A DNA stretch of 64,000 bases from Acidimicrobiia bacterium (GTDB lineage: Bacteria; Actinomycetota; Acidimicrobiia; IMCC26256; JAENVU01). Below the pieces are notes generated by a model. It searched no databases, was not told the origin of the DNA, and saw only the letters and a list, made by a program, of their open reading frames with translations. The stretch covers positions 7,290-71,289 of the forward strand of contig JBKJIQ010000047.1 of NCBI GenBank assembly GCA_046598395.1. Direction: 5' to 3'. This document shows positions 17,475 to 25,029 of the stretch, in pieces; position 1 is the stretch's first letter, and every line of letters begins with the position of its first letter. A program made the position numbers and the translations under genes.

Positions 17475-18680
17475 TCAGCAGCTCGACCCGCCGCTTGAGT
17501 TTGGCGTACTTTCCATGCCCGAAGGCACTCGTTCGGCGCCAAAGTCGGGGAGAAGGTCGCGGTGAGGCGTGAAGAGGTCCTCACCCGCGGGACCGACGAG
17601 TTCAAACCGGTTGGGGTCGTTCTGACTTGGTTGAACCGGGGCGGTCAGAAACATCCACGTCGACGGGTCATCGCGCACGAACCGACTGGCCAAGCTCAGG
17701 ATCTGGTCGCTCGTGAATCGGCTGTCGACCGTGAGCGACCGCACAATTGAGTCGGCCACGTCCCGCGCCTTCCCTAGATCGGAGCCGACGTCACGCCGGG
17801 TCCGGGCGAGGAGCGCCATCAGGAACTCCTGTTGGCGCGTGATCCGGCCAAGATCTCCTTGGCCCGACTCGTCGGTCCACTTCCCGGCCGAATCCCGCAA
17901 CTCGAGATGACGGCTGCGAACCCAGGCCAGCGCGTTGTTACCGTCGAGGGTCCTACACCCGGGGGCAGCGATATCGAGCCCCGAGTAAAGGTCGCGCACT
18001 GGTCCGGGAACCATGAGCCGAACGCCGCCGAGCTTGTCGACCACCTTGATGAATGCCGAGAAGTTGACTTGTACATAGTGGTCGACCTCGATCCTGAGGT
18101 GCGACCGGAGCGCATCGATCAACTCTTGCGGACCGTCGTCGAAATACGAGTTGAGCTGCCTCGGAGAACCGCCACCATCGGAGAACACGAGATCGCGCGG
18201 TAGCGAGACAACCGTGGTCGAGGACGCGGTGAGACGCACCAACATCATGACGTCGGCCCGCTGGGTGCCCTGGTGCGCCGCAGACCCGAATGCCCCTTCT
18301 TGGGTCGCGTTCTCAACGAAGGCCCGGCTGTCGGTGCCAACGACCAGGATCGTCATCGGAAACGGAACCGTCGATTCGTGCAGAGAACCCTTCGGCAGTG
18401 CGACGCGCCGGATCGCACCCACTCGATCATGGACCTGGCCGCGAGCAAAGAGCACGCCACCCACAGCGAAGACGGTCGTGACCGTGGCCGCGACGAGCGC
18501 TCGCCCGACCAACCGCCGGCGGGCTGGTTGCACAGCCGTGACGACTCCCAATTCCTCGCCACCAACGGCATCGCCGATGGCGGCATCGAGTGCAGCCCGG
18601 GCGCTTGCGCGTGCGTGCGCGTCGTCATTGGTTCTGGTCCGTTGACGTTTCCATTCGCCGAGCAGCTCGAGTTCATTCAT
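17475..18680 (-). CDS. LCP (LytR-CpsA-Psr) protein with N-terminal anti-sigma-like cytoplasmic segment
   Basis: ILVVGTDSR, RADVMML, SLPRD, VQVNF, WVRSRH and GDLGRITRQQ motifs; N-terminal MNELELL...ARASARAALDAAI followed by a TM helix. Confidence 0.85.
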   Translation of the reverse strand: MNELELLGEWKRQRTRTNDDAHARASARAALDAAIGDAVGGEELGVVTAVQPARRRLVGRALVAATVTTVFAVGGVLFARGQVHDRVGAIRRVALPKGSLHESTVPFPMTILVVGTDSRAFVENATQEGAFGSAAHQGTQRADVMMLVRLTASSTTVVSLPRDLVFSDGGGSPRQLNSYFDDGPQELIDALRSHLRIEVDHYVQVNFSAFIKVVDKLGGVRLMVPGPVRDLYSGLDIAAPGCRTLDGNNALAWVRSRHLELRDSAGKWTDESGQGDLGRITRQQEFLMALLARTRRDVGSDLGKARDVADSIVRSLTVDSRFTSDQILSLASRFVRDDPSTWMFLTAPVQPSQNDPNRFELVGPAGEDLFTPHRDLLPDFGAERVPSGMESTPNSSGGSSC

Positions 18681-19245
18681 GGTTGGTCAGCTCTTCATCC
18701 ACCTTCACCACGTCGGCGAGTGCGGCCTGCAACTTGGTGCGGGCACGCGAGATCCGCGAACGAACGGTGCCGATCGGAGTTCCGAGCGCCCGAGCGATCT
18801 GTTCGTAGGAAAGGTCGGCCCACGCATACAACAGGAGAGCATCGCGATCACGCGCCGAAATCGAGTTCAAGCTGATCGCGAGGCGGGTACCCAGCGCGTC
18901 CGCATCCAATCGGGCATCAAGGTCGAGTTGGAGCGGTGCCGTCGCGTGCAGTCGCCCGTACGCGCGCAATCGGCGCGCTTCGGAGCGTCGATGGCGGCGA
19001 ACCAGATTGCTCACAATGCCGTAGAGCCAGGGACGGGCATCGTCGCGATCGAACTCAAATCGATCTCTTACCCGGAACGCTTCGACGAAAGTGTTGGCGC
19101 TGACATCGTGGCCGTCACTGCCGAGGCGACGAACGCAATAACCGTCGATCACCCCGTAGTGACGCTCAAAAATCACGGCGAATCGCTCCGGCGCGTCGAG
19201 CGACGCCCGAATCAACTCACCGTCATGAAGCATCGCGTCCATCAC
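18673..19245 (-). CDS. ECF-type sigma-70 factor
   Basis: FAVIFERH, ARPWLYGIVSNL (region 2) and LSYEQIARALGTPIGTVRSRISRAR (region 4). Confidence 0.92.
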   Translation of the reverse strand: MMDAMLHDGELIRASLDAPERFAVIFERHYGVIDGYCVRRLGSDGHDVSANTFVEAFRVRDRFEFDRDDARPWLYGIVSNLVRRHRRSEARRLRAYGRLHATAPLQLDLDARLDADALGTRLAISLNSISARDRDALLLYAWADLSYEQIARALGTPIGTVRSRISRARTKLQAALADVVKVDEELTNHE

Positions 19246-19306
19246 CCACTCTTGCCCGCTCGCCCCGCTTCAGTTCACGGCGGGTCCCGAACTGGACACT
19301 GGCTGC

Positions 19307-24256: not shown

Positions 24257-25029
24257 GTTCGCCCGCGCCAACGGTTCGCACGGGTGATCCTGCACTCCCC
24301 TACCGCCGCCGCATCCGGCTGGTCCGGATCGATGCCGCCACCGTGTGGGGTGGGCTCGAAGACGATTTCCACCACTTCGAAGTCCGACTCACCCACGACG
24401 CCACCCACGTCACCGACATTGCGATGGACGCGTTCCGGTGGCCATGGGCAACGTGCCCGGACGCGGGCCTGCGCCTCCGCGAACTTGTGGGCTTGGAGCT
24501 TTCCGATCGCTGCACCGCAGTAGCCGCGGCAAGCGACCCGCGCTGGCAGTGCACCCACCAGTTCGACCTCGCGGGACTGTGTGTCTCCCACGCGGCTCGC
24601 GGCACCCCCGAGCGCCAGTACGACATCTCCCTCGACATCGGGACAACCACCAGCCATCCGCGCTTGTGGCGCGACGGTGAACTCATCCAGGACTGGACCC
24701 TCGAGGGCGCAGGCATGGGTCGGGTACTCGTCAACCCGCCCGAGTTCCTCGGCGCGCCGTGGAAGGGAGGGTTCATCAAATGGGCCGACGCGAATATGGC
24801 CCCGTTCGACGCAGAAGCTGCGATCATCCTGCGCCGGGCCTGTGACATCGGGATGGGCCGCGGCATGGATCTCGAAGCAATCGCCACCGCGTCCGAACTC
24901 GCCGGGATCATGAGCGGCGTCTGTTATTCGATGCAACCCGCCGTCATGCCCGTGGCGTTTCGCAGCCGGGGCACGATCCGAGATTTCGGCATCAACCCCG
25001 CCGCCCTCCTCGCCGGGCGGCCGACCTAA
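24253..25029 (+). CDS. DUF2889 domain protein
   Basis: LEDDFHHF, PWATCP and CTHQFDLA motifs; GTGA overlap with the upstream gene. Confidence 0.8.
   Translation: MSSPAPTVRTGDPALPYRRRIRLVRIDAATVWGGLEDDFHHFEVRLTHDATHVTDIAMDAFRWPWATCPDAGLRLRELVGLELSDRCTAVAAASDPRWQCTHQFDLAGLCVSHAARGTPERQYDISLDIGTTTSHPRLWRDGELIQDWTLEGAGMGRVLVNPPEFLGAPWKGGFIKWADANMAPFDAEAAIILRRACDIGMGRGMDLEAIATASELAGIMSGVCYSMQPAVMPVAFRSRGTIRDFGINPAALLAGRPT

Follow-up and report, generated by a model that had tools for sequence, protein, structure and literature searches.

We analysed a 64,000-nucleotide stretch of DNA from an Acidimicrobiia bacterium (contig JBKJIQ010000047.1 of assembly GCA_046598395.1; hereafter the window), concentrating on two overlapping minus-strand genes that encode a sigma factor of the extracytoplasmic function (ECF) type and a single-pass membrane protein, its partner, whose outer part is a LytR-CpsA-Psr (LCP) domain. 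From sequence comparisons, we consider it probable that these genes form a sigma/anti-sigma-like pair that regulates itself, with an active LCP ligase as the membrane partner. The closest relatives are metagenome-assembled genomes of Acidimicrobiia, and the genome to which it belongs measures 3.58 Mb and is 98.7% complete.

The gene pair and the cytoplasmic head of the membrane partner

The sigma factor gene (18673-19245, minus strand) encodes 190 amino acids (aa) from a GTG start at 19245, or possibly from an ATG at 19242; the partner gene (17475-18680, minus strand) encodes a single-pass protein of 401 aa. At 18673-18680 the plus strand reads tcattcat, so that the stop codon TGA of the sigma gene and the ATG of the partner gene overlap by 8 nucleotides (nt) on the minus strand (ATGAATGA on the coding strand). 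This overlap, which the first-pass annotation of this DNA had already described, implies translational coupling of the two genes. Overlaps are also frequent at related sigma loci: 67 of the 78 with a called partner have one, 34 by 4 nt and 33 by 8 nt.

The first 38 residues of the partner (18567-18680, minus strand) make up a cytoplasmic module, or head, which is read as two short helices, MNELELLGEW and AHARASARAALDAAIGDA, and which we regard as the candidate sigma-binding element. The head is followed by a linker (aa 39-60; 18501-18566, minus strand) that is poorly conserved, predicted to be disordered and closed by the basic stretch ARRRLVGR, and then by a transmembrane (TM) helix, ALVAATVTTVFAVGGVLFA (aa 61-79; 18444-18500, minus strand). 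This hydrophobic stretch was read from the sequence and is preceded by an RRR cluster; by the positive-inside rule, the basic residues before the TM helix point to an N-in topology. In the AlphaFold2 (AF2) model of the partner, which was built on an alignment of 29 family sequences and has a mean predicted local distance difference test (pLDDT) score of 78.5, the head helices lie at aa 3-10 and 21-38 and the TM helix at aa 63-75, with a pLDDT below 50 over aa 39-78. Sequence and model thus both agree with the one TM helix that had been placed after the head at first pass. Across the 29 family members, M1, L7, A27 and L31 of the head are invariant and W10 is nearly so, and the N-terminal motif of the Acidimicrobiia family can be written as MNELDLLRxWxP...S..RAxARAxL.

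We compared this head with the partners of related sigma factors. These partners are single-pass proteins of 290-420 aa that start with the pattern M-[ND]-[ED]-L-x-x-L-R ... P ... A-R-x-R-L, and they belong to NF038083 (CU044_5270 family protein; 125-188 bits), which 69 of the 73 that were scanned match. When only the cytoplasmic stretch before the TM helix was used, hhalign aligned the heads of the Acidimicrobiia LCP family with those of the CU044_5270-type partners over 35 columns at 97.4% probability (P 1.1e-11), and the heads of a second, Streptosporangiales group of LCP fusions with those of the CU044-type partners at 96.7% (P 3.6e-10). The Streptosporangiales fusions also match NF038083 itself, through their N-terminus only (model positions 1-63, E 2.7e-4). 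Membership of NF038083 takes a full-length match of more than 100 bits over the head, the TM helix and an ectodomain of ~230 aa; the window partner gives no match to this model, lies outside the CU044_5270 family and is homologous to it in the head alone. Together, these comparisons support the view that the N-terminus of the partner, far from being a generic LCP tail, is a conserved module with homology to the usual overlapping partners of its ECF clade.

Residues 1-60 of the partner contain no Cys/His motif (the HxxxCxxC of the class I anti-sigma domain), and by profile the head is not a class I anti-sigma domain (zf-HC2 PF13490 / RskA type). The first-pass annotation had called the N-terminal helical segment anti-sigma-like. 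That description is borne out in part: two helices are predicted and the head is homologous to that of the NF038083 partners, but it matches none of the known anti-sigma domains in Pfam or NCBIfam. We did not count as support the weak matches of a few related partners to the anti-sigma family NF052375, because that family is represented by an ordinary anti-sigma downstream of another ECF in the window's genome and because the matched stretch spans the second helix and the TM helix (protein aa 20-95 in one case).

The head is joined to many different outer domains. A 45-position head profile, searched against 1.84 billion representative proteins, recovered at least 374 representative clusters at an E of 1e-3 or below, nearly all of them matched at residues 1-45. 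The best 97 full-length head proteins comprise 74 of the CU044_5270 type, two with a SecDF P1-head domain and one each with an LCP domain, an SCO4651-like lipoprotein domain, DUF6923 and DUF5074, and the remainder have no recognised domain. Anti-sigma factors would be expected to show just this pattern: one conserved head, combined with many outer domains and always found beside one sigma clade.

Several individual variants were also recorded. The head and TM helix precede a SecDF P1-head-like domain in P0221 and P0238, and a repeat-rich ectodomain that we read as beta-propeller-like in P0125; these add to the partner types of this sigma group. P0178 (246 aa) carries two tandem head motifs before its TM helix (ELDALRDLW...ARATLFDEI and ELDALGDLW...ARARLFAEI). 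At L157:3543-4151, from an uncultured member of the Acidimicrobiaceae, an ECF of the same clade overlaps by 1 nt a 203-aa partner without a TM helix, in which a glyoxalase/VOC domain is fused to a related N-terminal motif; this is possibly a cytoplasmic version. P0136 was rejected as a sigma-head fusion, its open reading frame (ORF) call mixing frames.

About 30-50 database proteins share the whole architecture of the window partner, at 380-396 aa and 37-59% identity, and the databases label them simply "LCP family protein". In the Acidimicrobiia family, the sigma gene lies directly upstream in all 11 loci examined, with a 4-nt ATGA overlap in nine of them. The other two (L166:2910-3010 and L167:2825-3010) also have the ATGA overlap and the head (MNELDLLQAW... 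and MNDLDLLRAW..., respectively), here frame-shifted relative to the LCP body; the thiolase gene of L167 is fragmented as well, and these two may reflect frameshifts from the assembly or copies in decay. At most Acidimicrobiia loci the pair is flanked by a common set of genes (Rieske/SCP2, PHP, thiolase, inositol phosphatase and FGGY); at L082, the sigma-LCP pair is kept although the flanking genes differ entirely. No other candidate anti-sigma gene is conserved in the Acidimicrobiia loci. At three loci (L083:5215-6621, L167:719-2116 and L169:953-2350), a gene for a pyrroloquinoline quinone (PQQ) beta-propeller protein, absent from the window, stands beside the pair, ahead of the sigma gene or behind the LCP gene.

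We also approached the pairing from the LCP side, taking the best 80 LCP loci from species-representative genomes and searching them for sigma genes by tblastn and with a profile hidden Markov model of the clade. A sigma-70 homologue was found within 4 kb only in two loci, both with the full N-terminus; in the remaining 78, none of which has the full-length head, no sigma gene lies within that distance. The Streptosporangiales group, with head, TM helix and LCP domain, was first seen as eight sigma-linked partners in Actinomadura, Spirillospora, Sphaerisporangium and Streptosporangium. Approached from the LCP side it comprises 25 loci in species-representative genomes, which add Microbispora, Microtetraspora and Sphaerimonospora, and in every one of the 25 the sigma ORF ends at the LCP start. 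Taken together, the head-carrying LCP families are paired with a sigma gene at 36 of 36 loci. The search for pairs of an ECF and an N-extended LCP gene that the first-pass annotation had proposed was thus positive across two families, and a head-bearing LCP without an ECF, which it had named as the case that would speak against its reading, did not turn up.

The two families have separate histories. A maximum-likelihood tree built from 88 sigma factors places those with LCP partners from the Acidimicrobiia and from the Streptosporangiales in separate clades with support of 100/97 and 99/95, respectively, each with a CU044-partnered sister. In the LCP-domain tree, the window's clade nests among Acidimicrobiia LCPs, adjoining the LCP-LytR_C paralogue of its own genome, and the Streptosporangiales clade nests with LCPs of Nocardiopsis and Streptomyces. 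By these two trees, the combination of head and LCP domain arose at least twice independently.

The LCP domain, the sigma factor and the promoter

The extracytoplasmic LCP domain of the partner covers aa ~105-370 (17571-18368, minus strand). Within it, PF03816 (LytR_cpsA_psr) matches aa 141-294 at 103.2 bits (cut-off 24.6), and TIGR00350 matches the partner at 98.3 bits (cut-off 62.3). In the AF2 model the domain has a pLDDT above 90; it is close to Actinomyces oris LcpA (PDB 5V8C) both in sequence (E 1e-30) and by Foldseek (E 1.3e-22, TM-score 0.78), and the best 33 PDB fold matches of the partner model are all LCP-family or LCP-like structures. Profile and predicted alpha-beta-alpha fold thus assign the partner to the LCP glycopolymer transferase family.

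The first-pass annotation had stated that the LCP domain keeps its D/R motifs, and 11 such residues are indeed present (D117, R119, R141, D143, R162, D163, R255, R257, D276, R279 and R282). All are invariant in the 29 family members except R141, which is replaced by K in several rows. The catalytic residues of A. oris LcpA, R128, R149 and R266 (PMC6381275), align with R141, R162 and R279/R282 of the partner. Since all catalytic residues are kept, the domain probably works as an enzyme and is not purely a sensor.

Two cysteines, Cys242 (codon at 17955-17957, minus strand) and the last residue, Cys401 (17478-17480, minus strand), are likewise invariant in the 29 sequences, six of which extend 3-4 residues past the C-terminal cysteine. 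By analogy with the C179-C365 disulfide of A. oris LcpA (PMC6381275), they probably form a stabilising disulfide. A cysteine at or near the C-terminal end is also seen in other Acidimicrobiia LCPs (P0032/P0033), including the LCP-LytR_C paralogue of the window's genome. That genome has three LCP paralogues; the nearest to the partner is the 454-aa LCP-LytR_C protein, encoded on another contig, which is 51% identical in the catalytic domain and is without the special N-terminus.

The window sigma scores above cut-off with the Pfam models Sigma70_r2 (PF04542), r4 (PF04545) and r4_2 (PF08281) and with TIGR02937 (sigma70-ECF; 67.5 bits, cut-off 42.9), and the Pfam and NCBIfam scans give no match to an r3 region. 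By these profiles, and with a length inside the range of about 170-220 aa for the group, it is an ECF (group 4) sigma-70 factor composed of sigma-2 and sigma-4 domains only. The SigE-family model TIGR02983 gives 67.5 bits, below its cut-off of 141.55. Orthologues in the aligned family loci are 56-64% identical, and relatives at 45-53% identity are abundant across Actinomycetota, including Streptomyces, Actinomadura, Nonomuraea and Lentzea.

For the ECF group, we compared the window sigma with 14 library ECFs, a set that holds no ECF51 or ECF222 sequence. In phmmer, ECF32_1122 (52 bits) and ECF34_1384 (48 bits) scored above ECF38_1322, ECF38_1442, ECF39_1438 and ECF39_2973, which reached only 15-26 bits, and a placement in ECF38 or ECF39 was not obtained against this set. 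In a passage of Casas-Pastor et al., the actinobacterial groups ECF222, ECF51, ECF38 and ECF39 are said to share one type of one-TM anti-sigma; because the window sigma does not resemble the ECF38 and ECF39 library members, this remark cannot be carried over to it with confidence. The window's genome has about a dozen other ECF-like sigma genes, several of which are followed by ordinary anti-sigma-like proteins, so that the partner occupies what is expected to be the anti-sigma slot. None of the ORFs downstream of these other sigma genes carries the head.

A putative ECF-type promoter lies just upstream of the sigma gene (19251-19278, minus strand). It consists of a -35 element, GTGAAC (19278-19273), a 15-nt spacer and a -10-like element, GGGCAAG (19257-19251), and ends 5 nt before the GTG start; this spacing suggests that the mRNA is probably leaderless. 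A GAAC -35 is typical of ECF promoters. At 10 of 11 orthologous loci the pattern GAAC-N15-GGG(C/A)AA(G/T) precedes the sigma gene, at 5-8 nt from the annotated start in nine and at ~60 nt in L082, and 18 of 80 related sigma genes have a related GAACC-N14-16-GGGCA element upstream. The sigma-LCP locus shows no evident sigma-70-type promoter and no evident terminator. Judging from the conservation of the element, GTGAAC-N15-GGGCAAG is a putative ECF promoter that is probably recognised by the operon's own sigma factor. The exceptional locus is L084:2110-3413 (GCA_025361725.1), where an ISL3-family transposase gene lies directly upstream of the sigma gene; the GAAC -35 is missing and a -10-like GGGAAAG is kept, and the insertion may be a natural promoter disruption.

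A strict scan of the genome for the motif gave nine matches, which is about the chance number by a rough estimate. The operon's own promoter is the one match with a convincing position, and most of the others lie inside long open frames. The only other plausibly positioned match (C26, ~24895-24923, outside the window) precedes a purE-like gene by 16 nt; given nine matches genome-wide, it is probably a chance occurrence.

A proposed circuit and competing explanations

In the circuit that we propose, the sigma factor and its single-pass partner would be made from one, probably leaderless, mRNA, starting at an ECF-type promoter that the same sigma factor probably recognises. The two-helix head of ~35 residues would engage the sigma factor and, as its homology and context suggest, would most likely hold it inactive at the membrane. 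From its fold and residues, the outer part is predicted to be an LCP ligase capable of catalysis, joining lipid-linked glycopolymers to the wall. Because the sole clear predicted target of the sigma factor is its own operon, the simplest circuit is a feedback loop on the level of the LCP ligase: an envelope signal would remove or alter the partner, the sigma factor would be released, and more sigma factor and more ligase would be made. Such a loop would set the level of an extra LCP ligase in the cell. The signal could be the state of the LCP domain's own substrate, or general envelope-stress proteolysis.

The position of the gene, its overlap with the sigma gene, the shared head and the modular use of that head suggest that the partner may be an anti-sigma factor, a protein that would bind its cognate sigma factor and keep it from RNA polymerase until a signal arrives. 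A number of observations weigh against this proposal. The head helices are modelled at low confidence (pLDDT about 46-75), and residues 1-98 match nothing in Pfam or NCBIfam even at an E of up to 10. By hhalign, the head shows no detectable similarity to the Streptomyces anti-sigma AS38_1322, for which a supplementary entry of Rhodius et al. 2013 gives 54-fold specific repression, or to the library entry AS39_1438 (P about 0.1), a comparison of low power in which a single sequence was set against a profile. A match to CnrY (E 0.0088) came from one of 73 partner proteins and is at chance level. We found no experimental study, of binding or inhibition, of any CU044_5270-family protein in the literature. 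The LCP domain is intact, so that the gene could be merely the operon's effector, and the promoter and regulon reading is drawn from conservation of the motif. Finally, the distribution is patchy: full-length family matches were found in about 5 of 151 sampled Acidimicrobiia genomes, and the same-genus representative G084 (93% complete) has only an LCP match from model position 16 and no full-length match. This patchy spread, together with G084, indicates that the pair is an accessory module.

The most direct competing explanation takes the LCP gene as a co-transcribed effector of an ECF regulon, in which the head does not inhibit the sigma factor and instead acts as a positive 'pro-sigma' element, in localisation or in coupling to a cytoplasmic partner of wall synthesis. 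The intact catalytic residues and the confident LCP fold are what such an effector should have, the head is unlike known anti-sigma domains, and LCP genes are known ECF targets: sco3044 and sco5358 of Streptomyces coelicolor are under sigma-E (PMC6767563), and in Bacillus thuringiensis the LCP protein EcfY is separate from the adjoining anti-sigma EcfX (PMC2632651). This explanation leaves unaccounted for a head that is common to non-enzyme partners of the same sigma clade, that accompanies the sigma gene whatever the ectodomain and that has recombined with LCP domains twice independently, and the Acidimicrobiia loci offer no other conserved candidate for the anti-sigma; we therefore judge it unlikely. 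We likewise asked whether the adjacency could be mere synteny, inherited among close relatives with no functional link. The shared flanking genes of most Acidimicrobiia loci would fit, but the pair persists in L082 among different flanks, the genes overlap by 4 or 8 nt, and the pair recurs in a distant order at 25 of 25 loci, the two occurrences having separate evolutionary origins, so that simple synteny is highly improbable.

A further explanation keeps the head as a sigma-binding anti-sigma module and denies the LCP ectodomain any signalling role: generic envelope-stress proteolysis would release the sigma factor, and the fusion would serve merely to give an additional ligase the same control and stoichiometry. 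Since the head occurs with many unrelated ectodomains, and once, in the glyoxalase fusion of L157, without a TM helix, no particular ectodomain chemistry is required; in addition, the LCP active site has none of the family-specific degeneration that would mark a sensor. Against this, an LCP domain was acquired twice independently, which speaks for some advantage particular to it, and on balance we rate the explanation as somewhat doubtful, though a real possibility. The first-pass annotation had put forward the opposite idea, that the LCP domain senses the status of a lipid carrier or wall polymer, and two independent fusions make this idea attractive. In its fullest form, a large actinobacterial anti-sigma class with a MNELxLLR...ARxRL head would have taken up LCP ligases as outer domains on at least two independent occasions, and sigma release would depend on the substrate state of these enzymes (whether lipid-linked glycopolymer is bound, or whether acceptor peptidoglycan is available); we advance this version tentatively and think it unlikely as a whole.

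Teichoic acids, capsules, arabinogalactan and polymers of this kind are joined to peptidoglycan, as the final step, by LCP enzymes, and we know of no dedicated sensor for this last step. If substrate state does control sigma release, the partner would give the cell a sensor that feeds back directly from the final step in attaching wall glycopolymers; a ligase serving as the membrane partner of a sigma factor would, if the proposed pairing is correct, be a simple and testable circuit for sensing that attachment. The two independent origins suggest that the fusion is useful to the cell. The head itself is a very common partner element of actinobacterial ECFs, mostly annotated as 'CU044_5270 family protein', and sigma binding by the head, if true, would assign a role to many proteins that carry this label. 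Because cultured Actinomadura, Microbispora and Streptosporangium carry the LCP version, experiments are feasible.

Comparison with known systems

An ECF sigma factor followed by a single-pass partner is a known architecture; in the window, the partner carries an enzyme as its outer domain. We found no description in the literature of an LCP domain fused to an ECF partner head; the ECF reclassification paper does not mention LCP or LytR, and a 2021 review of LCP proteins does not mention sigma or anti-sigma factors. The nearest relatives are the ECF and CU044_5270 partner pairs that are common in Streptomyces, Actinomadura, Nonomuraea and other Actinomycetota, which share with the window pair the sigma clade, the 4- or 8-nt overlap, a homologous head and one TM helix, and differ in having a CU044_5270 domain of unknown function outside the membrane where the window partner has an LCP ligase.

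Compared with classical anti-sigmas (the single-pass RsiW, RslA and RskA; CnrY and NepR), the partner is similar in that its gene directly follows and overlaps that of an ECF, and in its N-in orientation, small helical head and variable outer domain. It differs from the class I anti-sigmas of the zf-HC2/RskA type in lacking both a match to an anti-sigma domain model and HxxxCxxC. The class II anti-sigmas CnrY and NepR are short, and the two short helices of the window head are closer in size to class II than to class I.

Among LCP proteins, A. oris LcpA (5V8C), TagT/U/V and Staphylococcus aureus LcpA/MsrR resemble the window partner in the LCP fold, the catalytic Arg triad and the single-pass arrangement with the domain outside. 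In contrast to the partner, their cytoplasmic tails are short or unrelated, and no sigma factor is encoded with them. The probable C-terminal disulfide of the partner is of the actinobacterial style seen in A. oris LcpA, with C242 as the partner residue instead of the helix-H2 cysteine.

A precedent for an ECF operon with an LCP protein is sigW-ecfX-ecfY of B. thuringiensis, in which, according to the account that PMC2632651 gives of Espinasse et al. 2004, the LCP protein was proposed to contribute to the negative regulation of the sigma factor. There, EcfX and EcfY are separate proteins of a Firmicutes species, whereas in the window, from Actinomycetota, the head and the LCP domain are parts of one protein.

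The closest parallel in concept is found in a different sigma family. In the SigI-RsgI systems of Clostridium thermocellum, an anti-sigma with an extracellular carbohydrate-binding or carbohydrate-active domain reads polysaccharide. The window pair would share this concept and differs in the sigma family, in the anti-sigma domain and in the ectodomain (LCP here, a carbohydrate-binding module or glycoside hydrolase there); SigI-RsgI responds to an external substrate, whereas the window pair, as we propose, would read the cell's own wall.

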